Assembly: GCA_030679255.1 (NCBI GenBank)
Contig: JAUXTO010000022.1
Span: 64,915 to 128,914 of the forward strand
Length of the DNA: 64,000 bases
Direction: 5' to 3'
Source of the DNA: Candidatus Gottesmanbacteria bacterium
GTDB taxonomy: Bacteria > Patescibacteriota > Microgenomatia > UBA10105 > UBA927
Below the pieces are notes generated by a model. That model searched no databases, was not told where the DNA came from, and saw only the letters and a program-made list of their open reading frames with translations. Numbering within the stretch: the first letter of the stretch is position 1; each line of letters begins with the position of its first letter. The position numbers and the translations under genes were made by a program. Below are positions 3,216-22,036 of this stretch, in pieces.

Positions 3216-3821
3216 ATGAACAAAAAACGAAGTGGCGCTATTATTGCATTGCTCGGTACAGCGGGAAGCGGGAAATCCACGTTTGCCGACCATCTGGGTA
3301 CGGCACTTCACGCAACAGTGTATAAAGAAAAAACAGACGGAAACCCATTTCAATCGTCGGCGCACACATCCACAGGAAAAATTTTCGAAAATCAGGTATG
3401 GTTTCTTCTCCAAAGCGTTCATCGGTGGACTGAAGCCATACACATTGTAAAAAATGGAAATATTGCCATCATGGATACATATGTTCCATTTAATGATTTT
3501 CATTCAAAACTTGCGTTTGATCATCACTCGTATGCGCTCTATGAACAACTATCTCAACGACTCAGTACCCATATGACTCAACCTAATCTCGTCGTCTATC
3601 TTTTTGATACTGTTGACTATCTTATGGACAGACTCCGGCGCCGAAACACGGCCTATGACAAAAACGTCAACCCCGAATATCTTCATAAACTTCAAACTCT
3701 CCACGACGCATGGATTTCCTCAAATCTCCTCCCAATATTACGCATCCGCTCACGTGAATTAGAAAATAGTGACGTTGAAGCCACGCATATTGCGGATATT
3801 CGACAACGAATCCAACAATAG
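3216..3821 (+). CDS. deoxynucleoside kinase-like P-loop kinase
   Basis: Walker A GTAGSGKST at the N-terminus. Size (201 aa) and a LID-like RRRNTAYD segment fit the dNK/dCK family. Confidence 0.45.
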   Translation: MNKKRSGAIIALLGTAGSGKSTFADHLGTALHATVYKEKTDGNPFQSSAHTSTGKIFENQVWFLLQSVHRWTEAIHIVKNGNIAIMDTYVPFNDFHSKLAFDHHSYALYEQLSQRLSTHMTQPNLVVYLFDTVDYLMDRLRRRNTAYDKNVNPEYLHKLQTLHDAWISSNLLPILRIRSRELENSDVEATHIADIRQRIQQ

Positions 3822-3829
3822 TACTATCC

Positions 3830-5257
3830 TCATTTCCTTGCTCGATCGGACTCGGTGAGCATCATATGGAGAGAAGATAACGCCTCATTTTTTCTTTCCC
3901 CTAACCAAATATAATCCCTCAGTGCAGATATCAGATTTTCGATCATGATACCTACGTCCTCCATTGGATATTTTTTGAACTTAATCATCTGTTTCCCTTC
4001 AAAAAAGGGTGTCTCTATAACCGTACTTAAATAGGTCTGATACGAGTGTCTTGGGACAATTTTTATATCCCGCGGTGCCGCGGGTAGCAATACAAATTCT
4101 CTTTTTGACTGCAGAAGCGACTGCCTGGCAACTTCTACAAGAAAATCGGCTATACCAAGATATATATAATTTTCTTTCCCTTCACGCTCCTGCCATGTTG
4201 AAAAATATTCTTTCGCCTTCTCATTTCCCTCGTCTATATCGCCAAAAAAACGATACATCAAAACGTCGATTGTCTTGTCAAAGAGCAGACTTCCTTGTGT
4301 CTCGTAGCCTCTGGTGCCTTTTGATCGTTTCCCAATGGCCTGAAGAAGCTGCTCCGCGAGTTTGTCTTGACCTATCAAACGAATGACAGTTGGTTGATTT
4401 GCATAGATTGCCCCTTTCCATCGTGGATCCGTCATTTTTATGCCCAAAACGCCACAGCTCACAAGAAATTCGCGTAAGGTGAGATAGTGACGTTGTATCT
4501 CTCTTTGTAAACCCAACGGGGCGTCTACACGAACTGAAAGATGTGTTTGTACGTCCTTCCATTCCCGAAGTTTTTCATCTCCATCGATTGATTGGTAAAA
4601 ACGAATCGCTTCCTGCTTATTGGTATACGGGGTAACACTTTGAGTAAGAAAATCCGGTAAAAAATGTTTAAGAAAGGCGACCCACGTCGGATTTTTATAC
4701 AATTGATCACTATGCTGAAAAAAGTCTCTATTTGGTGCGAATATATCGCGATAACAAACTATCCCGTTTGGTATAAGCACTCTGGTCATTTCTCGTAACG
4801 CCTTCCGTACCTCCTGTAATCCACCGCCGTAAGAATACACCTCATGCAACACAGCAGAAATGTTAATCCCCGAAAATGTTTCATTCCCGAAGGGCAATTT
4901 CTGTGCCTTGCCGGCAACGACATGAGAGCAATCTTCAAGCATTCGTACCCGGGGGCCTCGCGAGGCAAGCTCATCATTATCAAATAAATCAAGCGATACC
5001 AACTGAACCGGGTATCCAAGTGGGCTTTCACGGATAATACTGTCCAAGCGCCGAATGCTCTCTCCGCTCCCCGGTCCTATCTCTAAAATTCGCACCTCGT
5101 GATCAATAATGGGAAGCTCATTTTTTCGCAACGAATCAACCATTAATGCGTTTTTTTCCTCATTTGCTCCACAAATCGCAAATAAATATTCTTTTGAATA
5201 CTTTTCTGATGGGACGATGTAATTATTTTTTTTTACCATAAACGGGGCCTGCTCCAT
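3830..5257 (-). CDS. SAM-dependent methyltransferase domain protein with long C-terminal extension of unknown function
   Basis: Motif I ILEIGPGSGESIRRL and the downstream acidic motif LVSLDLFDND are typical of class I MTases. The ~250-aa C-terminus has no recognisable motif. Confidence 0.5.
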   Translation of the reverse strand: MEQAPFMVKKNNYIVPSEKYSKEYLFAICGANEEKNALMVDSLRKNELPIIDHEVRILEIGPGSGESIRRLDSIIRESPLGYPVQLVSLDLFDNDELASRGPRVRMLEDCSHVVAGKAQKLPFGNETFSGINISAVLHEVYSYGGGLQEVRKALREMTRVLIPNGIVCYRDIFAPNRDFFQHSDQLYKNPTWVAFLKHFLPDFLTQSVTPYTNKQEAIRFYQSIDGDEKLREWKDVQTHLSVRVDAPLGLQREIQRHYLTLREFLVSCGVLGIKMTDPRWKGAIYANQPTVIRLIGQDKLAEQLLQAIGKRSKGTRGYETQGSLLFDKTIDVLMYRFFGDIDEGNEKAKEYFSTWQEREGKENYIYLGIADFLVEVARQSLLQSKREFVLLPAAPRDIKIVPRHSYQTYLSTVIETPFFEGKQMIKFKKYPMEDVGIMIENLISALRDYIWLGERKNEALSSLHMMLTESDRARK

Positions 5258-13887: not shown

Positions 13888-14151
13888 TCATCCCAATATC
13901 TCCTTCACCATCCGGTATACATCCCGCCGGTGACGGATGAGAACAATAATTATTGTTTCATTCATTTTTTTATACACAATCCGGTAGTTTCCCGCCCTCA
14001 CACGATACACATGAGGATAGCCGGACAGTTTTTCCTCACCGGAAACCTGCGGATTAGGGAGCAATCGAATTTTTTGGGCAACGGCTAGCTGGTCGAACTT
14101 AGGAAATTTCCGCAGTTCCTTTTCCGCACGGGGAAGGATAGTAATCTTCAT
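13888..14151 (-). CDS. RelE/ParE-family toxin
   Basis: 87 aa. C-terminal GNYRIVYKKMNETIIIVLIRHRRDVY matches the RelE/ParE core. Confidence 0.75.
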   Translation of the reverse strand: MKITILPRAEKELRKFPKFDQLAVAQKIRLLPNPQVSGEEKLSGYPHVYRVRAGNYRIVYKKMNETIIIVLIRHRRDVYRMVKEILG

Positions 14152-14423
14152 ATCCCAAGACTACGGGCGACCTTCTCAAAATCTTTTCCCTTGGAAAAAT
14201 CAGCCTTGGCTACAGCTGCAGCGTCCAACTTGTCTTCCAAATAAGCCGTAAGGCGCTCAAACAACTGTTTCCCTACGAGATATGCGGTTATTTCATTGCG
14301 ATTTTCCACCGCCACCGGATAGTCCGCAGCCTGCGCAATCACGGCAGATGGATTCATTTTTAATTGGGATATAGTCGCTGTGGTCATACAATGATTATGA
14401 CCTATAAACAGGTCTTCTGTCAA
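14148..14423 (-). CDS. Phd/YefM-family antitoxin
   Basis: Small acidic ORF overlapping the RelE start by 4 nt. TISQLKMNPSAVIAQAADYPVAV resembles the YefM N-terminus. Confidence 0.6.
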   Translation of the reverse strand: MTEDLFIGHNHCMTTATISQLKMNPSAVIAQAADYPVAVENRNEITAYLVGKQLFERLTAYLEDKLDAAAVAKADFSKGKDFEKVARSLGI

Positions 14424-14445
14424 GACCTTTTAAGAGGACACGGTA

Positions 14446-14718
14446 TTATCGATACAACTGGCTATGGGTGCCAAATAATTTGAATTCTATGATGATCTCT
14501 CCGGTTGCAGAGTGACTCTCCGCATAAAGCGCTCGCCAATCGCCAGTCACGTTAATACTCCGGTATCCTTTGTACGAGCCTGCCAGTGCGTGATTATGAA
14601 GGAAGGGATGAAATGGATCAGTTTGAAAAAGCTGAGATCGCTCTGCAAAGGCCAAACGTATATGCTTATTCGCCTTGCGGTATTGCTTGCGGAATACTTT
14701 ATCGTGCCGGATGTCCAT
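14446..14718 (-). CDS. YafQ-like RelE-family toxin
   Basis: FRKQYRK....HALAG..KGYRSINVTGDWRALY matches the YafQ pattern. Internal start MDIRHDK chosen. Confidence 0.6.
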   Translation of the reverse strand: MDIRHDKVFRKQYRKANKHIRLAFAERSQLFQTDPFHPFLHNHALAGSYKGYRSINVTGDWRALYAESHSATGEIIIEFKLFGTHSQLYR

Positions 14719-15013
14719 TCTGATATCGAGCCTTCGGGTCGTCAAGCCAGGCAATCGAGTCTTTCACGTTGCTAAACGAAGGAGAAACGAATCCCGCCTT
14801 GGTATCCTTTTCAGCTTGTTTCAACATCCGTTTTGTCCAGGGCGTAGGTTCTAGTCGTACATCATCAGAAAACTCCACGGTGCGCGTCCGGACCAGGTTG
14901 CGAAGGTACGCATTGAGGACAGAGCTTAACGAAAACCCCAAACGCTCCACCACCGCTTGCGCGTTCTTTTTTATTTTCGGATCGACTTTGAAATTGACAA
15001 CTGCAGTATTCAT
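14699..15013 (-). CDS. DinJ/RelB-family antitoxin
   Basis: N-terminal MNTAVVNFKVDPKIKKNAQAVVERLGFSLSSVLNAYLRNL resembles the DinJ ribbon-helix-helix domain. Sits directly upstream of the YafQ-like gene. Confidence 0.6.
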   Translation of the reverse strand: MNTAVVNFKVDPKIKKNAQAVVERLGFSLSSVLNAYLRNLVRTRTVEFSDDVRLEPTPWTKRMLKQAEKDTKAGFVSPSFSNVKDSIAWLDDPKARYQNGHPAR

Positions 15014-15196
15014 ACCAGGTAGTAGAATTTCGCTGTTCCTGTACGGAACGGAAGTCTACTCTCCAACGTGGTTATCCACTCATTCACCAGGTAATGTTTT
15101 CAATGTGTCTTCACATTGAGCGAAATTTCACTACCTGGCATATATACGAAGTATATACTTTATATATATCCTGTCAAGCCAAATCATACTATAGGA

Positions 15197-15229
15197 TTGA
15201 CTTTAACTCTCTCTCTCTCTCTGTAAAAT
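15197..15229 (+). promoter_or_regulatory. sigma70-like promoter with (CT)n spacer: TTGACT - CT-rich spacer - TGTAAAAT
   Basis: TTGACT at 15197-15202 and TG-TAAAAT at 15222-15229. The 21-nt spacer is longer than optimal. A Shine-Dalgarno AAGGAG lies before the ATG at 15431. Confidence 0.35.
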
Positions 15230-15430
15230 CCCTCCTACAGGTCGCACAAACCCCGCTCTACGCTGCGGTATGTTTGTTGATCTGGGCACCTTTACAGTTT
15301 GAGAAAAGCGGAACGTGACTATTCTCCTTTTCCCCCATTGGATAGCAACATGCGCATACACCATCTTGTGCCTATGTTTCTATCCAATGGAGATAGGAAA
15401 ATTGAAATAAATTATTCAAGGAGAATAATC

Positions 15431-15793
15431 ATGAACAGCAACACAGAAAGATTCAAGAACCTTTTTACAAAGAAAAACTTTTCAAAATTGATCCACGCGT
15501 TGTCTACGCTCCTGTTCGTCGGGTACGCCCTAGTGGTGTTCGCTCAAAAACCTCTAGCAACCCTAACACAAGGAGAATTCGCGCTGATGCTTTTCGGGCT
15601 TTTATTGCTCGGCATTTTGGAGACGAGTCATTTTATCGTCTTCATAAAAAACTTCAGACGCCAATATCTTTACACCGTTCTCAACTGTATGGGCGTAATC
15701 ATGTTGATACTTGCCATCAGTCCTGGCGACTACTTTGTCACTCTCCTGATGGTTTTGGGGTTTACGTTTTTAATAGCTTTCGGGCTAATATAA
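15431..15793 (+). CDS. small membrane protein (3-4 predicted TM helices)
   Basis: Hydrophobic segments LIHALSTLLFVGYALVVFA, LMLFGLLLLGIL, MGVIMLILAI, VTLLMVLGFTFLIAFGLI. RBS AAGGAGAATAATC precedes the ATG. Confidence 0.5.
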   Translation: MNSNTERFKNLFTKKNFSKLIHALSTLLFVGYALVVFAQKPLATLTQGEFALMLFGLLLLGILETSHFIVFIKNFRRQYLYTVLNCMGVIMLILAISPGDYFVTLLMVLGFTFLIAFGLI

Positions 15794-15891
15794 CCCCACT
15801 TTTCTCAAGCACCACCCTCCCCGTACACCGGACATTTGCCAATGGTGGCAGCAACAATGGTGTACGGGAGAGGGATTTTTTTTGATAAAAA

Positions 15892-16311
15892 TTACGGCAG
15901 TTTCAAAAAATCCTGCGGGGTGAGGATGGTAACTCTTTCGATGCTACCGCGAAGCGCCAATAAATCTTTATCCGCGCTCACGAGATACACGGGTTCACTC
16001 CCCGCTACGGCAAGCGCGATTCCGAGGATTTCATTATCATCAGGATCCCGACACAGAATCGTTGACTGGGGCACTATCACATTACCGGATGCAACAATCA
16101 TCTCTATAAACGTTGCTGCCGTTTCGCGGGTTATATCATACTTCCTCAATCGTGTGTAGGTAAATACGCGTGCAAGCTCAGTAAGGAGGCCATGGCTATA
16201 CCATAGAGCAATTTTTCCATCCATTGCGAGGTCAAAGACGCGCCAGTCACTCCCGCCTGGTCGAAGAAGTGCACGAACGAGCACATTAGTGTCAACGATG
16301 ACGTTTGGCAT
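15892..16311 (-). CDS. PIN-domain toxin (VapC-like)
   Basis: VIVDTNVLVRAL start and conserved acidic residues (D..E..D..D) spaced as in PIN domains. Confidence 0.7.
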   Translation of the reverse strand: MPNVIVDTNVLVRALLRPGGSDWRVFDLAMDGKIALWYSHGLLTELARVFTYTRLRKYDITRETAATFIEMIVASGNVIVPQSTILCRDPDDNEILGIALAVAGSEPVYLVSADKDLLALRGSIERVTILTPQDFLKLP

Positions 16312-16585
16312 ACCGTTTTGCCCGTTCGATATCCGCGTTTAATTCTTCATCGGAAACATCGGCATTTTTTATACGCATAGCGTCCCATATCTCCTCCATT
16401 TTCTTTTTAAGCAATTGTTTTTTGAGCATTGTAAGCTCCTGATATTCACTATATGCCATCATAACCGCCTCCGGCACGCTATCCCGCACCACCACGAGCG
16501 GTTCATCGGAACTGCGCAGTTTAGCAAGCACCTGCGTAAACTTTCGCTGCACATCGGTAGAACTGATTATGTTCGTACTCATCAT
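16292..16585 (-). CDS. putative antitoxin (Phd/YefM-like) partnered with PIN toxin
   Basis: 97-aa ORF overlapping the PIN start by 20 nt. PLVVVRDSVPEAVMMAYSEYQEL resembles YefM. Confidence 0.5.
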   Translation of the reverse strand: MMSTNIISSTDVQRKFTQVLAKLRSSDEPLVVVRDSVPEAVMMAYSEYQELTMLKKQLLKKKMEEIWDAMRIKNADVSDEELNADIERAKRYAKRHR

Positions 16586-16626: not shown

Positions 16627-18654
16627 TTATCGTATCTTCGCTCCCACGGGGAGACCTTCGGCAGAAACAAACAGGGGCTTTGCCGTTTTCAAAGCCTGGC
16701 TTTGATCTTCTGGAAAGCCTGGCTTTGAGTCGACCGCCAATATCATCCCCTGGCTCTCCTCATCCATCATTTTTCGCGGCGCAAGATTGGTGATAAAGAA
16801 AAATTGCTTATTGAGGAAGTCTTCGGGTGTATACCCAAACCCCCGCACGCCGGTAAAAATAATGCGAAGTTCTTTTTCATCCCCCTTACCTCCCTTATCT
16901 CCCCCATCTCCCTGATCTCCCTTATTCTTCAACCCAAAATCCACCACGAGCCGTATGAGTTTCTCACTCCCCTCTTTGTTGGTCGCCTCAACGACTTTCC
17001 CCACCCTTAGCTCCACCCTGCCAAATTCTTCAATGGTTATGACGCCATCATTTTCTCCGTTGCCTAATTGTTTTGCAGTCTTTATTGGTAGTATTGGTAG
17101 TATTTGTTTATTGGTAGTATTGGTAGTATTTGAATATTGATTGATAAGTCCCACCGCCTCCCGTACTTCCCGCATTGTCTCCCCTGCAACTATCCTCGCT
17201 TTTGCCGCCCCGTCCTCTAGTATTTTCTTGACGGCCGCAGGATTTGCTGCCAATTCCTTATACGCTTTTCTCGCATTTGCAAAGTATTTAAGTAATGATT
17301 CATACAGGTAATTTTTTACCTCAACATCTGCTATCTGACCCTTTCTATAAGCTTCTTTCAGTTCGTTGTTTTTTGTTTTTTGTCCAAAATAATCTAGGTA
17401 GGTAAAGACCATGTTGCCCTCCGTGTGTCCGGGGTCCGTTGCATGAATTCTGGTCGGATCCGTGTACGTACTCATCACCTGCTTTCGTATTTTTTCCTCA
17501 TCGTCAAAGATGCTGATGATATTTCCCAAGCTCTTGCTCATCTTCCGTTTCCCATCTGTTCCCAACACCGCCCCCACCTCCTCCGGTATATACGCCTCCG
17601 GCAGTTTGAATACTGCGGTCTTGCGCGTCCCAAGCAAAGTCGAGGGATAAATCTTATTGAAGCGTTCTGCGATATCGCGTGTAATCTCCACGTGCTGTTT
17701 CTGGTCTTTCCCCACCGGCACGAGGTCCGGTTTATAAAGAAGGATATCCGCAGCCATAAGGACGGGATAATTAAATAAACCGAGATTAATATCCTCTTCC
17801 AGGATATTTCTTTCGAGCTTATCCTTATATGCATGGGCGCGCTTGATGAGGCCCAAAGGTGTCACATTATTGAGTATTGTTTGGAGGTCAGGATGAAGCC
17901 CAATATCTGATTGACGATAAAATATCAGGTTGCCAAACTCCTTTTCGGAAAGAAATCCCTTAAGGAGCGCGAGCTCATTGAGGATGAGCGTTTCAGAGTT
18001 GTGTTGGAGTTGAGTCCTATCCTGTATCGTGGTTAACGCGTGTAAATCTGCCACAAACAAAAAGCACTCGTTCGTTTTTGCAAGCTCAATAAACTGCTTG
18101 ACTGCACCTAAATAGTTCCCAATATGCAGACTCCCATCTCCACTTGGCGTGATACCCGACACTAGTCGTTTCCCTTGTACTACACGTTTCAACTCGTTGA
18201 ATGCAAAATCTCCAACCATCCCCCCGTTGACCTTCGGCATGTCAAGAGCATTCATCACCATGCCAAGCGTTCTCATGCCGCCGATGCCATATGCTTTCCC
18301 AATCGTCAATACTTTTGCATCGATAAAATACGGAATAGCAAGTCCCAAGTACGGCACAAGTCCGGCTTCTGTTCCCAAAGTTTTCAGCTCTGCTTTGGAA
18401 GCAAATGCAAGCGTCTTGACCACTGCGAGTTTTTTGAATTTTTCCTGATCTATCTGGGTATCGGCGCACTTGACTGCGGCGACTATCCCCTTCTCTGTTT
18501 TGTAGAGTATCGTTACCATCGCCTGTGCAAGGGAAATGTGATGAAACGCGGCGTGTGACGGCACGTCAAACGGCAAATCCTCCGGCAAGGGGATAAATTT
18601 GTAATCCACCTTATTCTCATTTAGTATTTTTTCGATGGTATCTTTTAGATTCAT
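16627..18654 (-). CDS. trpS: tryptophanyl-tRNA synthetase with N-terminal YbaK/ProX-like deacylase domain and C-terminal EMAP/Trbp111-type tRNA-binding domain
   Basis: SGITPSGDGSLHIGNYLGA (HIGH-type) and KRKMSKSLGN (KMSKS) match TrpRS. The C-terminal VELRVGKVVEA...NLAPRKMMDEESQGMILA is the OB-fold tRNA-binding module. In-frame TTNTTN and KPGF repeat segments are present. Confidence 0.85.
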   Translation of the reverse strand: MNLKDTIEKILNENKVDYKFIPLPEDLPFDVPSHAAFHHISLAQAMVTILYKTEKGIVAAVKCADTQIDQEKFKKLAVVKTLAFASKAELKTLGTEAGLVPYLGLAIPYFIDAKVLTIGKAYGIGGMRTLGMVMNALDMPKVNGGMVGDFAFNELKRVVQGKRLVSGITPSGDGSLHIGNYLGAVKQFIELAKTNECFLFVADLHALTTIQDRTQLQHNSETLILNELALLKGFLSEKEFGNLIFYRQSDIGLHPDLQTILNNVTPLGLIKRAHAYKDKLERNILEEDINLGLFNYPVLMAADILLYKPDLVPVGKDQKQHVEITRDIAERFNKIYPSTLLGTRKTAVFKLPEAYIPEEVGAVLGTDGKRKMSKSLGNIISIFDDEEKIRKQVMSTYTDPTRIHATDPGHTEGNMVFTYLDYFGQKTKNNELKEAYRKGQIADVEVKNYLYESLLKYFANARKAYKELAANPAAVKKILEDGAAKARIVAGETMREVREAVGLINQYSNTTNTTNKQILPILPIKTAKQLGNGENDGVITIEEFGRVELRVGKVVEATNKEGSEKLIRLVVDFGLKNKGDQGDGGDKGGKGDEKELRIIFTGVRGFGYTPEDFLNKQFFFITNLAPRKMMDEESQGMILAVDSKPGFPEDQSQALKTAKPLFVSAEGLPVGAKIR
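17084..17131. repeat. (GGTAGTATT)n tandem repeat inside trpS (encodes TTNTTN on minus strand)
   Basis: Same 9-nt unit in tandem at 38422-38461 and 38561-38590, inside two other genes. Confidence 0.65.
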
Positions 18655-18713: not shown

Positions 18714-19430
18714 TCAAAGGTAGCTTAGGCGGGCCTCCTTTGTATAATACTGTTTTAATATGGTGTTTGCGAGAATGGAAAGTGAATTATAAACCGGCAG
18801 GTCATAATTCGTTGGAAAAACCAGTGGAAGCTCCGTGCATCCTAATACAATCCCATCAACCTTCTCTTTTTCTCGATAGCCAGTCACCAACGTTACGAGT
18901 TTTCTCATGAGCATTCCACGATCTTCTCCGGATAAAACTCCCCGTATAATATACTCGAGCTCCCGGTAATCCCGCTCCTGTGGGACGATATACGGCAAAT
19001 CATGACGCGCCAAAGCAAGTTGGTAAAGTCCTAGCCGCAATGACGTTGGCGATGCGAGTAGTAATACCCGTGGAGCATTCCGAGACACTTCTTTGACCAC
19101 CGCATCAACAATCGAAACAAATGGCACGTCGGTTTGCAGTTGCAGTCGGTCCGCGAGAACACACGCGGTATTACATGCCATTGTGATCGTCGTTGCGCCA
19201 TAAACGGTTAATCGCCGCACGCGGCTTTCTAACATCTGAGCGGCTTCTTCCATTCTTTCCATATCACCAATAAAATAGGGCACCGGCACTGAGTCAATGA
19301 TGATTTCCGGATACTCATCATTATTTTTCGCGCCATAGATATGCCGCGCTTGATCGATGAGGATACGATAAAACTCCGCACTCGCCTGCGGCCCCATGCC
19401 ACCGATCACGCCGATAATGTTGTTATTCAT
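18714..19430 (-). CDS. aspartate/glutamate racemase family protein
   Basis: IGVIGGMGPQAS at the N-terminus, plus the two Cys motifs MACNTA and LGCTELPL. Confidence 0.75.
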   Translation of the reverse strand: MNNNIIGVIGGMGPQASAEFYRILIDQARHIYGAKNNDEYPEIIIDSVPVPYFIGDMERMEEAAQMLESRVRRLTVYGATTITMACNTACVLADRLQLQTDVPFVSIVDAVVKEVSRNAPRVLLLASPTSLRLGLYQLALARHDLPYIVPQERDYRELEYIIRGVLSGEDRGMLMRKLVTLVTGYREKEKVDGIVLGCTELPLVFPTNYDLPVYNSLSILANTILKQYYTKEARLSYL

Positions 19431-19433
19431 AGG

Positions 19434-19659
19434 CAGATCCGCTCCGGCTCGAACGGAGAATAGGAATTTTGTCCCAGAAGTAGCTTGCGGGGCTCCTCTG
19501 CTTCGAACAGAGAACGCTAGTTTTGGAGACTAGAATGATTCCAGTTTCACCAAAGCCCCAGCCGCTTAGTACTTCGGGATCCCGCACGCTAAGCCAAATC
19601 TTTTTGATTTGGCAAGTGATGCGGGAGACATTCCTGTGATTCCATTTCACTACGGATCT
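19434..19659 (-). tRNA. split or intervening-sequence-containing tRNA gene enclosing tRNA-Trp; anticodon not assignable (CUC/Glu if junction falls after loop position 36)
   Basis: 5' half 19659-19630: AGATCCG TA GTGA AATGGAA TCAC A GGAAT. 3' half 19467-19434: ATTCC TATT CTCCG TTCGAGC CGGAG CGGATCT G. Acceptor, D, anticodon and T stems are all perfectly complementary and the T loop is canonical. They are separated by 162 nt. Confidence 0.5.
19488..19559 (-). tRNA. tRNA-Trp (anticodon CCA)
   Basis: Hand-folded cloverleaf on the minus strand: acceptor GGGGCTT/GAGCCCC (7 bp, one GU); D stem GTGA/TCAT; anticodon stem CTAGT/ACTAG with loop CTCCAAA (U33, CCA, A37); T stem CTCTG/CAGAG with loop TTCGAAG; discriminator G. 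CCA not encoded. Confidence 0.85.
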
Positions 19660-19718
19660 AAAAAAGCCCTTGTAAATCATCCACGATAATCGTGGAGAAT
19701 GTACAAGGGCCTTCTTAT
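19660..19718 (-). terminator. rho-independent terminator-like hairpin (GCCCTTGTA...TACAAGGGC + T6 on minus strand) abutting the tRNA 5' end
   Basis: 9-bp GC-rich stem with nested inner hairpin, followed on the minus strand by TTTTTT at 19665-19660. Confidence 0.4.
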
Positions 19719-20028
19719 TTGAAGGGGTACCACCCTACTTCGCTTTTCTACAAAAAATCCCACCGGAACGGCGGGAGATATGTAAGAAAAACCTCATTAC
19801 ATGCTCCGCTGAATGCGACACATGGTGCTTTATTTTTACAGTTAAGCTTCCGGATGAGACATTCCTCAAGAGATAGCCTCATCAGCGTTTTGATATTTCT
19901 ATCAATTGGAAAGATCCCAATCAATCTCTCCTTACGCTTTTATTCAACTGAAAAGTAGTATAGCACAGGCTTTGACGCTTGACAAGCCTCTCTACTATGT
20001 TATTATATTGTTATAACAAAGGAGACAG

Positions 20029-20281
20029 TATGAAACAAAAAATCATCAAAGTCGGCAATTCCGGAGCAGTCTTGATCCCAAAACAGTATTTGGACACGCT
20101 CAAACTCAAAATTGGATCTAGCATTAATCTTGATTTACAGGAGGACAGTTCACGCCTCGTTATCGACGTGCCTGCTAAATATATGAGCATGAAAGTTCCG
20201 TTGGATAAAGAGGTCTACGCAGTCGGCCAGGATCTCCTGAAGCGCTATCTCCCTGCATTTGTAAAGCTTGCACACGCATGA
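20029..20281 (+). CDS. AbrB/MazE/SpoVT-fold antitoxin
   Basis: KIIKVGNSGAVLIPKQYLDTLKLKIGSSINL is the swapped-hairpin motif. Stop overlaps the start of the Doc toxin (ATGA). A TTGACA-16-TATTAT promoter lies at ~19975-20005. Confidence 0.65.
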
Positions 20282-20661
20282 AATATCTCACCACGGAAGA
20301 CGTGCTCCTCCTCCATCATCTCTCTATCGAAAAAAGTGGCGGCTCCCACGGACTACGTGACGCTGGGCTATTGGACGCCGCCGTCCATCGACCACAGGCG
20401 ACATTTGATGGAGAGGATTTGTACCCCAGGCTCTTTGATAAAGCTGGAGCCCTTTGTCACTCCCTCATCAAAAATCATGCGTTTGTCGATGGGAATAAAC
20501 GCACATCGCTCCTTTCCACCATGACGTTTTTGGAAATCAATGGGTATACGTTCAAGTGTAAACAAGAAGAACTCGTAGTATTTGGTCTGAAAATCGATAA
20601 CGAAAACATCTCGCCGAACGGCATCGCCACTTGGTTTATATCCCACTGCATTAAACGCTAA
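20278..20661 (+). CDS. Doc (death-on-curing) / Fic-fold toxin
   Basis: HAFVDGNKRTSL matches the Doc/Fic motif H.F.DGNKR. Confidence 0.8.
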   Translation: MKYLTTEDVLLLHHLSIEKSGGSHGLRDAGLLDAAVHRPQATFDGEDLYPRLFDKAGALCHSLIKNHAFVDGNKRTSLLSTMTFLEINGYTFKCKQEELVVFGLKIDNENISPNGIATWFISHCIKR

Positions 20662-20670
20662 CGAACAACT

Positions 20671-21231
20671 ATGATCGACACCGCGCACATCATCCTTCTC
20701 ATAAGTCTAATGTGGTACATATTGTTTTGGGCCATGACCGATACATCCCCCATCGCTCACTTCATCGCAAATTTTCGTACAGTACGGGGAATGTTTGGAG
20801 TATTAATGGTCTTTGTTATGGCTATTCAAGCCTTGAAGCTTTTTCAACTTGATCTTCCATCACATTACCAAAATCCAATGAGCATCTGGCTCGGCGTTCC
20901 CATTTTGATCCTTGGGTTGGCTCTCGCCTGCTGGGCCAAGATCGTCATGAAAACTAACTGGGGTGTCCCGGCTCAACACGACATCGCTAAGCAGAAAGCA
21001 CTCGTCACATCAGGGCCATTTATGTATACACGAAACCCCATCTATCTCGGGCTTCTCCTCTATTTCATAGGATTTGAACTTGCCCTGATGAGCTGGCTCC
21101 TCGCCGCCACCATTCCCCTCTTCATCCTCATCCGTATGGCAATCGCCAAAGAAGAAACACTCCTGCGTAAATATTTCGGCAAGATGTACGCGGCATATTG
21201 CAAAAAAGTCCCGCAGTTATTGCCTATTTAG
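20671..21231 (+). CDS. isoprenylcysteine carboxyl methyltransferase (ICMT/PEMT) family membrane methyltransferase
   Basis: Multi-TM protein with C-terminal LVTSGPFMYTRNPIYLG...EE..L...FG..Y..Y...VP signature. Confidence 0.7.
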   Translation: MIDTAHIILLISLMWYILFWAMTDTSPIAHFIANFRTVRGMFGVLMVFVMAIQALKLFQLDLPSHYQNPMSIWLGVPILILGLALACWAKIVMKTNWGVPAQHDIAKQKALVTSGPFMYTRNPIYLGLLLYFIGFELALMSWLLAATIPLFILIRMAIAKEETLLRKYFGKMYAAYCKKVPQLLPI

Positions 21232-21477
21232 ATAGTTACTAAGTTGTTTTTTAATTACTCTCATGCCCATACTCGTCTTTAAATATTTTTCTCGAGCCTC
21301 GGCGTCAGATTTTAGCAAATAGGCTTCGTAGTAGATGAGCTTAAACGGAGTGTAAGGTGCCGTAGAAAAATTTTTACCGGCGTTGTGTTCAGCGACTCTT
21401 CGTTTTAAATCGGATGTTGAGCCTTTATAAAGCCAGTTGTTACGTTTGGAAGATTGGAGGATATAGACGTAGTACAT
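21217..21477 (-). CDS. GIY-YIG nuclease domain protein
   Basis: YYVYILQS...LYKGSTSDLKRRVAEHN is the GIY-YIG core. Confidence 0.7.
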   Translation of the reverse strand: MYYVYILQSSKRNNWLYKGSTSDLKRRVAEHNAGKNFSTAPYTPFKLIYYEAYLLKSDAEAREKYLKTSMGMRVIKKQLSNYLNRQ

Positions 21478-21647: not shown

Positions 21648-22036
21648 ATTTGATACCCTCGGTTGCGGGGCTGGGAGTCGCACCCAGCCTAGAAGATTAT
21701 GCACGTGTTTCTCCCATTCCTGAGAGTGTCGGACTATATCTTTCCCGCTAAGCGGGATTCGGCGTATAGTCTCTACGGATTTCCGCCAACTGGCGGACCT
21801 TTCCTCGGTATTACCCTTCAATATTGAATGGGGTTTCACCGATATAGCCGAATTCTACCCTGAGATATTTCTCTGAGCAGCCCATAATCGAGCCTTCTGT
21901 GCAACTGTACACTACCCCGCGGTACATGAAAGTACTCTCGTATACTATCAAACGAACTACGGAGCGTCAACGCAGGCTTGAACTTTTTTCTGTTATTCAA
22001 TGAAAGATGCTTTCATTTTTATGCTAAAATCAACTC

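Follow-up and report, generated by a model that had tools for sequence, protein, structure and literature searches.

Why would a tryptophanyl-tRNA synthetase (TrpRS), the textbook small synthetase without an editing function, carry a domain that resembles the YbaK/ProX editing proteins, and what could such a domain do there? The question is raised by trpS, a gene in a 64,000-nt stretch of DNA (the window, from contig JAUXTO010000022.1 of assembly GCA_030679255.1) of a Candidatus Gottesmanbacteria bacterium, a member of the Microgenomates in the candidate phyla radiation (CPR). In our best explanation, which taken as a whole we consider rather probable, the product is a working bacterial-type TrpRS of this genome, built from a canonical core and one optional tRNA-handling module at each end. 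Judged from profile alignments, the N-terminal module is of the YbaK/ProX (INS-superfamily) fold without the catalytic Lys and without the canonical Pro of the GXXXP loop. Since both motifs are altered and the domain falls in a branch of the superfamily that lacks the Lys, it cannot simply be presumed to act as a deacylase, and the name of deacylase that the original prediction gave to this module is not supported. The features of the gene are as follows (aa, amino acids):

16627..18654 (-): trpS, three-module tryptophanyl-tRNA synthetase, a single 675-aa open reading frame (ORF) with ATG start and stop codon at 16627-16629
18196..18654 (-): YbaK/ProX-fold domain of Lys-less type, aa 1-153 (PF04073, profile against PDB, AlphaFold model (AF2), Foldseek)
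18514..18516 (-): codon 47 (Val), position of the superfamily's catalytic Lys (YbaK K46), from profile alignments
17140..18168 (-): canonical bacterial TrpRS core, aa 163-505 (PF00579, TIGR00233, 3m5w)
18115-18126 (-): HIGN motif (core alignment)
17530-17544 (-): KMSKS motif (core alignment)
17041..17139 (-): disordered linker, aa 506-538, predicted local distance difference test (pLDDT) <50 over aa 511-536
17083-17130 (-): 9-bp tandem repeat of the linker, encoding NTTNTTN (Tandem Repeats Finder, period 9, 5.4 copies)
16630..17040 (-): OB-fold tRNA-binding domain of Trbp111/EMAPII/MetRS-C type, aa 539-675 (PF01588, TIGR00399, PDB matches)
16879-16925 (-): 9-bp tandem repeat of the OB loop, encoding KGDQGDGGDKGGKGDEK in a Gly/Asp/Lys-rich insert, aa 577-592 (Tandem Repeats Finder, period 9, 5.2 copies)

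Three modules in one protein

The three modules that had been proposed are recovered by Pfam, all above gathering scores: tRNA_edit (PF04073) at aa 35-126 with 34.0 bits (cut-off 25.5), tRNA-synt_1b (PF00579) at aa 163-458 with 206 bits, and tRNA_bind (PF01588) with 49.1 bits (cut-off 27), the last one matching in two stretches because the KGDQGDGGDKGGKGDEK insert interrupts the OB fold. The G+C content stays at about 46-50% throughout, with no local anomaly. In the full-length AlphaFold model (mean pLDDT 79.5, predicted template-modelling score (pTM) 0.56), residues 1-153, 163-505 and 539-675 form confident blocks, and low confidence is limited to 511-536, 581-591, 646-656 and, within the core, 266-280 and 366-376, the latter spanning the KMSKS loop.

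It is extremely improbable that an error in assembly or sequencing has made one ORF out of two or three genes. Frameshifts do occur in assemblies of metagenome-assembled genomes (MAGs), and one relative (L005, 5001-6871) has its OB domain on an ORF of its own, 144 aa long and sharing 7 nt with the end of the YbaK-TrpRS gene, a split that may be either natural or an assembly frameshift. Against such an origin, and against the missed stop or frameshift that the original prediction had considered, the frame in the window runs uninterrupted without internal stop, NCBI lists a 100% identical protein as 'MAG: tryptophan--tRNA ligase [Candidatus Gottesmanbacteria bacterium]', homologs keep the N-terminus MNLKD, the AF2 model joins the folded N-terminal domain to the core by a short linker, and 61 co-linear three-domain homologs come from independent samples and projects. 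The fusion is a widespread family trait of CPR lineages and not an artefact.

The core, delimited to aa 163-505 by alignment with canonical TrpRS, aligns end to end with bacterial TrpRS structures (3m5w, E 6e-68; 2el7, E 6e-65), and the NCBIfam equivalog TIGR00233 (trpS) covers aa 162-503 with 275 bits against a cut-off of 176.75. Across 49 homologs H177-I-G-N180, K371-M-S-K374, H205, M300 and D303 are invariant, and S375 of KMSKS is kept in at least 90%. The Trp-pocket residues H205, M300 and D303, which sit in ADLHAL and YPVLMAADILLY, are the equivalents of H43, M129 and D132 of Bacillus stearothermophilus TrpRS. By these alignments the core bears every signature of a TrpRS, and Trp-specific aminoacylation is predicted. 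The product itself contains no Trp residue, nor does any of the 40 homologs with listed composition (P0001-P0040), a property of such TrpRSs already noted by Mukai et al. 2017 (PMC5370408). By tblastn, no second trpS, free-standing YbaK or dtd gene was found in the window, which represents 64 kb of a 258-kb contig and not the whole genome.

At the other end of the protein, the predicted OB-fold tRNA-binding domain was borne out by the PF01588 score and by matches to MetRS-beta/Trbp111 at E 1e-11. TIGR00399 (metG_C_term) matches the module at E 2e-20, and solved MetRS-beta, Trbp111 and MetRS C-domains (8vtz, 1pyb, 38li, 1mkh) do so at E 7e-12 to 3e-7. The beta-strands of the OB fold have high pLDDT on both sides of the loop insert, which drops below 50 over aa 581-591. 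Both repeat insertions that had been read from the sequence are genuine 9-bp tandem repeats, and the alignment of close relatives shows that they vary in length or are missing; the OB-loop insert is common to P0003, P0004 and P0018, with variable length. TrpRS is a homodimer, and on MetRS the OB domain gives a sequence-independent grip on tRNA that lowers Km. Because of this dimeric state, the two OB domains would probably pair across the dimer like Trbp111 and, by analogy with MetRS, probably add a sequence-independent tRNA grip that lowers Km.

The N-terminal domain and its Lys-less branch

A profile built from 23 N-terminal domains was run against PDB and matched 1wdv (APE2540) at E 9e-17, the ProRS INS domains 5znj and 2j3l at E 7e-12 and 2e-10, the ProX of Thermus thermophilus (2cx5) at E 2.5e-11, YbaK of Haemophilus influenzae (1dbu) and ProX of Escherichia coli (2dxa) both at E 3e-10, and ProXp-ala (5vxb) at E 6e-4. 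The AF2 model of the isolated domain (pLDDT 92.4, pTM 0.86) was superposed by Foldseek on 2z0k, 2cx5, 1dbu, 2dxa and 1wdv with a template-modelling (TM) score of about 0.82, a root-mean-square deviation of 1.8-2.5 A and probability 1.00. Together with PF04073, these matches uphold the YbaK/ProX-like module of about 150 aa that had been proposed, and the superposition speaks against any other fold for the region. G98, D112, K72 and G126 are structural invariants shared with the superfamily.

The motifs of the superfamily are another matter. According to the literature, all characterised INS/YbaK members use the Lys and the GXXXP loop (PMC11286415), the strictly conserved Lys being K46 in YbaK, K279 in INS and K45 in ProXp-ala. 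In the profile alignments the K of the K-T/S motif of 1wdv, 5znj, 2cx5, 2j3l and 3op6 falls on Val47, and every PDB relative has K there. Among 77 homologs that bear the N-terminal domain, Ala (37), Ser (15) and Val (12) are the commonest residues at this position, Thr and Pro are found too, and Lys never. The GXXXP loop reads G98-L-V-P-Y, with the Pro at +3 and a Tyr at +4, and its Gly is kept in nearly every homolog. TIGR00011 (YbaK, Cys-tRNA(Pro) deacylase) gave no match at E <=1 for this protein, and its sole YbaK-related NCBIfam match is the weak ProRS model NF006625 (E 0.003).

A search of 1.84 billion representative proteins with the domain profile found 4168 relatives at E <=1e-3. The best 41 of them (E <1e-22) are all without the Lys, with Pro the commonest residue ('P-T-L' motif), and many of these are free-standing proteins of about 150 aa; canonical relatives with the Lys start only lower in the list. 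We compared column frequencies between 70 Lys-less and 77 Lys-bearing representatives. Position 47 is K in 100% of the Lys-bearing set, and P (51%) or S (19%) in the Lys-less set. The Pro position of GXXXP (+4, P102) is P in 87% of the former, and L (35%) or P (26%) in the latter. From this joint shift it follows that both motifs were lost together. The only other difference between the two sets, beside the joint loss of K47 and P102, is a GG pair (positions 123-124); the 70 Lys-less sequences, set against the 77 Lys-bearing ones, show no newly conserved His, Cys, Ser or Lys that could serve as replacement catalytic residue. D65, K72, G98, D112, G126 and D138 are invariant in both sets and, from their conservation, look structural in role. 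The cut-off of the NCBIfam YbaK models was reached by 0 of 10 free-standing Lys-less representatives. On these comparisons the N-terminal domain is placed in a sizeable Lys-less branch, which also exists in free-standing form and has no studied member.

The fusion to TrpRS is unusual with respect to the textbook enzyme, as the original prediction had it, but it is common within CPR lineages (Gottesman-, Roizman- and Dojkabacteria). The survey of the 120 best homologs gave these architectures:

61 of 120: all three modules, 7 of them (777-799 aa) with two different YbaK-like domains in tandem
15 of 120: N-terminal domain and core
44 of 120: core and OB domain, one of them with an amino-acid racemase fused in front

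The named relatives belong to Gottesman-, Roizman- and Dojkabacteria and to the 'Patescibacteria group', and the proteins already stand in public databases named plainly as TrpRS. On a neighbour-joining tree of the core (without support values) the architectures are thoroughly interleaved; therefore both end modules are accessory, and were gained, lost or swapped many times. In a syntenic Gottesmanbacteria relative (L013), with a core about 76-78% identical, the N-terminal domain is cleanly absent, and after the racemase gene only 100 nt remain before a TrpRS that starts directly with the core. In 17 other proteins the N-terminal domain is only about 22-32% identical to the one studied here, on cores that are 70-76% identical. 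Mean pairwise identity among type-A three-domain proteins is 58% for the N-terminal domain, 74% for the core and 69% for the OB domain. By these values the N-terminal domain evolves faster and yet is clearly constrained, under purifying selection.

Fusions were also sought among the best 150 representative relatives of the domain, a scan that took in most of the multidomain proteins. The synthetase partners found in it are TrpRS, TyrRS and AspRS only. Fusion to the N-terminus of TrpRS is seen in many clusters and to its C-terminus in P0151, and a 744-aa protein (P0208) combines a PheRS-type B3/4 domain, a YbaK-like domain and TrpRS. P0167 joins a Lys-less YbaK-like domain to a bacterial TyrRS with an S4 domain, P0227 and P0179 carry a Lys-bearing one at either end of an archaeal-type TyrRS, and P0224 and P0266 are AspRSs with a C-terminal, Lys-bearing one. 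Apart from the synthetases, P0213 is a 491-aa protein of three YbaK-like repeats. The architectures of these seven proteins (P0208, P0167, P0227, P0179, P0224, P0266 and P0213) have not been reported previously. Fusion of a YbaK-like domain to TrpRS is recurrent: N-terminal, C-terminal, in tandem (7 proteins) and together with a B3/4 homolog.

The free-standing members of the branch have other neighbours:

L008/L009 5001-5474; L012 1121-1645; L010 5001-5459; L011 1173-1631: free-standing Lys-less YbaK-like genes with glyoxalase or DJ-1/PfpI neighbours

We had considered that they might lie beside trpS or tyrS, and rejected it: in the loci inspected they are not adjacent to synthetase genes. 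They lie directly downstream of glyoxalase-family genes at three loci in two contexts, and directly downstream of DJ-1/PfpI genes at two loci; HxlR-type regulators are also present at L008/L009. The Lys-less branch may have to do with stress by aldehydes or electrophiles and not with a synthetase.

The operon and its T-box-like leader

trpS is the last gene of an apparent operon in which tRNA-Trp, a racemase gene and trpS follow each other on the same strand, with gaps of 56 and 59 nt, behind a candidate regulatory leader:

19980-19985 (-): leader -35 box TTGTCA
19957-19962 (-): leader -10 box TATACT
19660..19962 (-): candidate Trp-specific T-box-like leader (sub-threshold Rfam match, covariation, fold)
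19908-19931 (-): leader hairpin of 7 bp with the 10-nt loop UUGAUUGGGA, UGG at 19917-19919
19726-19736 (-): T-box motif AGGGUGGUACC
19660-19710 (-): leader terminator, GCCCUUGUA, 27 nt, UACAAGGGC, then U6
19487..19559 (-): tRNA-Trp(CCA) with discriminator G73, first gene of the operon (ARAGORN; Rfam tRNA 43.7 bits locally)
18714..19430 (-): amino-acid racemase independent of pyridoxal 5'-phosphate (PLP), 238 aa, 59 nt upstream of trpS (TIGR00035 asp_race, 118 bits against a cut-off of 93)

The tRNA-Trp gene ends ...GAGCCCC-G, so that G73, the discriminator of bacterial type, is read directly from the sequence; the whole-window Rfam run missed this gene and a local run found it. For the racemase, the best named model is cysteate racemase, below the cut-off of that model.

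We read the leader as a Trp T-box of divergent type whose specifier hairpin is ultrashort, a reading suggested by conservation and pairing across loci. A pattern scan of metagenome contigs found eight loci with the leader, one of them on the same contig as L001. A looser pattern, TTGATTGGGAN{15,45}GCTGAT, was also tried on genome contigs and set aside, the inspected matches being due to chance (L042 is coding sequence). The alignment of the leaders shows a conserved promoter region, the block AGUUGAAUAAAAGCG and an invariant 10-nt loop. The hairpin stem is 100% paired in 6 distinct sequences, with 6 of its 7 pairs changed on both sides, a level of covariation reached by 0 of 500 shuffles; the fold has a z-score of -8.6. 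The T-box motif, a good one, makes up the 3' part of the Rfam match, and the terminator behind it is perfect. Depending on the locus, the UGGN of this motif ends in U or in C, either of which can pair with G73. Some points weigh against this reading. The Rfam T-box model (RF00230) matches 19703-19891 with 28.4 bits (E 1e-3) against a gathering score of 93, and the homologous leaders at the same position in L013 (36.9 bits) and L001 (25.9 bits) also lie below that threshold. Stem I is atypical. The invariant UGG sits in a terminal loop and not in a canonical internal Specifier Loop, upstream of tRNA-Trp and trpS. Membership in RF00230 is not established. Actinobacterial ileS T-boxes have an ultrashort Stem I as well.

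The genes behind the leader vary among loci. It precedes tRNA-Trp, racemase and trpS in the window, L001 and L013; tRNA-Trp, a TrpRS-A-like gene and a YbaK-TrpRS-OB gene in L140/L142; two ORFs of no assigned family and then a TrpRS without the N-terminal domain in L137; and, in L139, a racemase (3397-4110) that is 45% identical, with no trpS in the retrieved stretch. The first gene after the terminator is tRNA-Trp itself in the window, in L013 (4021-4093) and in L140/L142, so the riboswitch would control the synthesis of its own ligand. Expression of the trpS operon would probably be coupled to uncharged tRNA-Trp through this divergent T-box-like leader. If the leader is a Trp T-box, the racemase is part of a tryptophan-sensing regulon. 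Additionally, a palindrome-like element with consensus GCATATGTACNAACAATGTTAGTACAT lies just upstream of the leader promoter in most of L135-L142 (about 19990-20020, minus strand, in the window, where it is less well kept); it could be an operator.

The racemase is also a neighbour of trpS in L001/L002 and L013, an arrangement limited to a Gottesmanbacteria subclade, and in one protein (P0103 / L003 236-2473) it is translationally fused to a TrpRS without the N-terminal domain. A strict coupling between racemase and N-terminal domain was considered and rejected, given that the racemase precedes N-domain-less TrpRSs (L013, L003) too. In a more distant three-domain relative the gene upstream is of the PALP family, and other relatives follow the tRNA-Trp(A73)/ORF1/TrpRS-A operon described by Mukai et al. 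Downstream of trpS, FtsH, a 5'-3' exonuclease and a glycosyltransferase are conserved.

Other elements were seen around the operon. Dense toxin-antitoxin-like modules flank trpS (13888-16585 and 19979-20661 of the window), with PhdYefM/PIN directly downstream of it, RelE/ParE-like pairs, and AbrB/MazE-like and Fic/Doc genes as a pair upstream; these modules break a trpS-FtsH synteny that is conserved elsewhere. At 21663-21921 (-) lies an initiator-like tRNA-Met(CAU) gene (C1xA72 mismatch), which is split by a 189-nt group I intron (21702-21890) between U33 and C34; its joined exons are recognised by ARAGORN, and the intact locus was missed by both ARAGORN and the Rfam tRNA model. A GIY-YIG ORF (21217-21477) lies downstream of the split gene, past a terminator, and matches similar to the tRNA-Met group I intron are also present in L013 and L014.

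The role of the N-terminal domain and known systems

In the explanation that we prefer, a canonical core with an optional tRNA-handling module at each end, the N-terminal domain would most likely dock the aminoacylated 3' CCA end of tRNA-Trp on its way out of the synthetic site, and would act there as a checkpoint or a hand-off site. The free-standing Lys-less members, the purifying selection, the tandem arrays and the co-fusion with B3/4 speak for an activity of the domain. Other observations weigh against this explanation. With a pTM of only 0.56, the full-length model does not fix where the N-terminal domain stands relative to the synthetic site. Residue 63, which is Arg in most family members and Cys in this protein and its two closest relatives, would lie across the hairpin strand from residue 47, a placement read by eye from the predicted hairpin, and the family's Arg is gone at that place. 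Finally, a dispensable or degenerate domain would explain as well as a checkpoint why both motifs went together and why the whole domain is often missing among close relatives.

What chemistry the docked end would meet can be weighed among several possibilities, whose probabilities overlap. That the domain is a non-canonical deacylase, whatever its substrate, falls a little short of an even chance, and this estimate includes as subsets the two specific editing roles discussed below. That it is instead the relic of a dead YbaK-type deacylase, kept as a structural or tRNA-binding appendage that binds only, is a serious possibility which likewise stays below even. The loss of both Lys and GXXXP Pro, without a substitute polar residue conserved in the Lys-less branch, and the many losses of the domain among close relatives point in that direction, and the inactive INS-like N-terminal domain of yeast ProRS offers a precedent. 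Another one is the AlaX-like N-terminal domain of the cytosolic TrpRS of Plasmodium falciparum, which that enzyme needs for charging; the authors of the study favour a structural or tRNA-binding role over editing (PMC3680381). However, inert relics would hardly account for the many free-standing Lys-less proteins in diverse bacteria, conservation of the domain is good (58% mean identity), and the tandem pairs of different subtypes and the co-occurrence with B3/4 resemble a collection of active modules. A classical post-transfer editing, in which the domain would use the YbaK mechanism to deacylate tRNA-Trp carrying a wrong L-amino acid or a Trp analogue (for example Tyr, Phe or hydroxy-Trp), seems unlikely. 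It has in its favour that a known deacylase fold is joined in cis to a synthetase, and that one relative carries a PheRS-type B3/4 domain, homologs of which edit aminoacyl-tRNAs bearing aromatic residues or analogues; but the YbaK mechanism depends on the conserved Lys and on the GXXXP loop, both altered here, the Trp pocket of the core is canonical with no sign of relaxed specificity, and close relatives dispense with the domain.

The other specific role, a cis-acting deacylase of D-Trp-tRNA-Trp that would be a functional analogue of DTD, is in our estimate quite unlikely. The need for it would arise if the co-transcribed racemase interconverts D- and L-Trp and D-Trp reaches a TrpRS that discriminates chirality poorly. 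This hypothesis was raised mainly because the fusion partners coincide with the synthetases that discriminate chirality poorly, all the scanned synthetase-fused relatives being TrpRS, TyrRS (of bacterial or archaeal type) or AspRS, which is a lead and not a demonstration. It also draws on the racemase placed between tRNA-Trp and trpS behind a UGG-bearing T-box-like leader, on the same leader preceding a racemase in the L139 stretch without trpS, and on the racemase fused to TrpRS in P0103. On the other side, the hallmark catalytic motifs are absent, we know of no YbaK-fold enzyme that selects by chirality, the racemase is not strictly coupled to the domain (L013, L003), it has no assigned substrate, its best named model (cysteate racemase) lying below cut-off, and the domains on archaeal-type TyrRS and on AspRS are more distant and Lys-bearing. 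The full version of the hypothesis, in which the Lys-less YbaK fold is a cis proofreading module for TrpRS, TyrRS and AspRS that clears D-Trp-tRNA-Trp with a different active site alongside a T-box-controlled racemase, is improbable; if it were true, the racemase would let auxotrophic CPR bacteria salvage D-Trp when tRNA-Trp is uncharged.

For a core with accessory tRNA-handling modules, the interest of the finding lies in an INS-fold fusion to TrpRS kept in many CPR lineages, with related domains recurring on TyrRS and AspRS. It would mean either that the most reduced bacteria proofread in a new way or that a dead editing fold has been put to use again systematically. The operon adds two leads: a possibly new CPR variant of the T-box that would control the gene of its own ligand and, if the T-box reading is right, a racemase assigned to tryptophan metabolism by its regulation. 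Our literature search, mostly outside subscription journals, found no paper linking T-boxes to CPR bacteria, nothing specific on DTD in CPR and, on a YbaK-TrpRS fusion, nothing beyond one line in Mukai et al. 2017 (PMC5370408), where the legend of Fig. 4 mentions 'TrpRS fused with small proteins' in Microgenomates. Those are probably the same proteins as ours: that study describes bacterial-type TrpRS genes after the tRNA-Trp(A73)/ORF1/TrpRS-A operon, a layout also seen upstream of P0061 and P0091. It does not identify the fused parts as YbaK fold and OB fold, nor does it discuss motifs or function.

Compared with canonical TrpRS (Campylobacter jejuni 3M5W, T. thermophilus 2EL7, B. stearothermophilus 1I6K; E 6e-68 to 3e-43), the protein shares the core, HIGN, KMSKS, the His/Met/Asp of the Trp pocket and a cognate tRNA-Trp with G73, and differs in having about 160 aa more at the N-terminus and about 170 aa more at the C-terminus than an enzyme of about 330 aa without appended domains. 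With MetRS-C, Trbp111, EMAP II and CsaA (PF01588; E 1e-11 to 1e-8) it has in common an OB domain placed, as in bacterial MetRS, at the C-terminus of a dimeric class I synthetase; the host here is TrpRS, and the fold contains the 16-aa Gly/Asp/Lys insert and another at aa 646-656. The T-box riboswitches share with the leader the T-box motif with UGGN, the terminator after it and, putatively, a codon-bearing loop that would match the regulated genes; here a hairpin of 7 bp presents the putative specifier UGG in its 10-nt terminal loop, and the first regulated gene is tRNA-Trp. The P. falciparum enzyme is likewise a TrpRS with an N-terminal domain derived from an editing family, with an AlaX and not a YbaK fold, a eukaryotic-type core, no C-terminal OB domain and an unrelated lineage. 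The closest known system for the N-terminal domain is the INS/YbaK/ProXp family (ProRS INS, 1DBU, 2CX5/2Z0K, 1WDV, YeaK 2DXA, 5VXB), which has the same fold (TM 0.82; profile E 9e-17 to 6e-4). Its catalytic Lys is absent here, the Pro of GXXXP is displaced, and none of its NCBIfam YbaK models matches the domain. INS members besides the ProRS insertion have been described as single-domain proteins (PMC11295145), and YbaK/ProX fusions only with ProRS (PMC8319005). The role ascribed to the superfamily is to correct errors of ProRS. Known members either consist of the single domain or occur in ProRS as an insert or an appendage. A class I TrpRS with such a domain at its N-terminus is therefore outside the described systems, the more so given that the Lys-less branch has not been studied.

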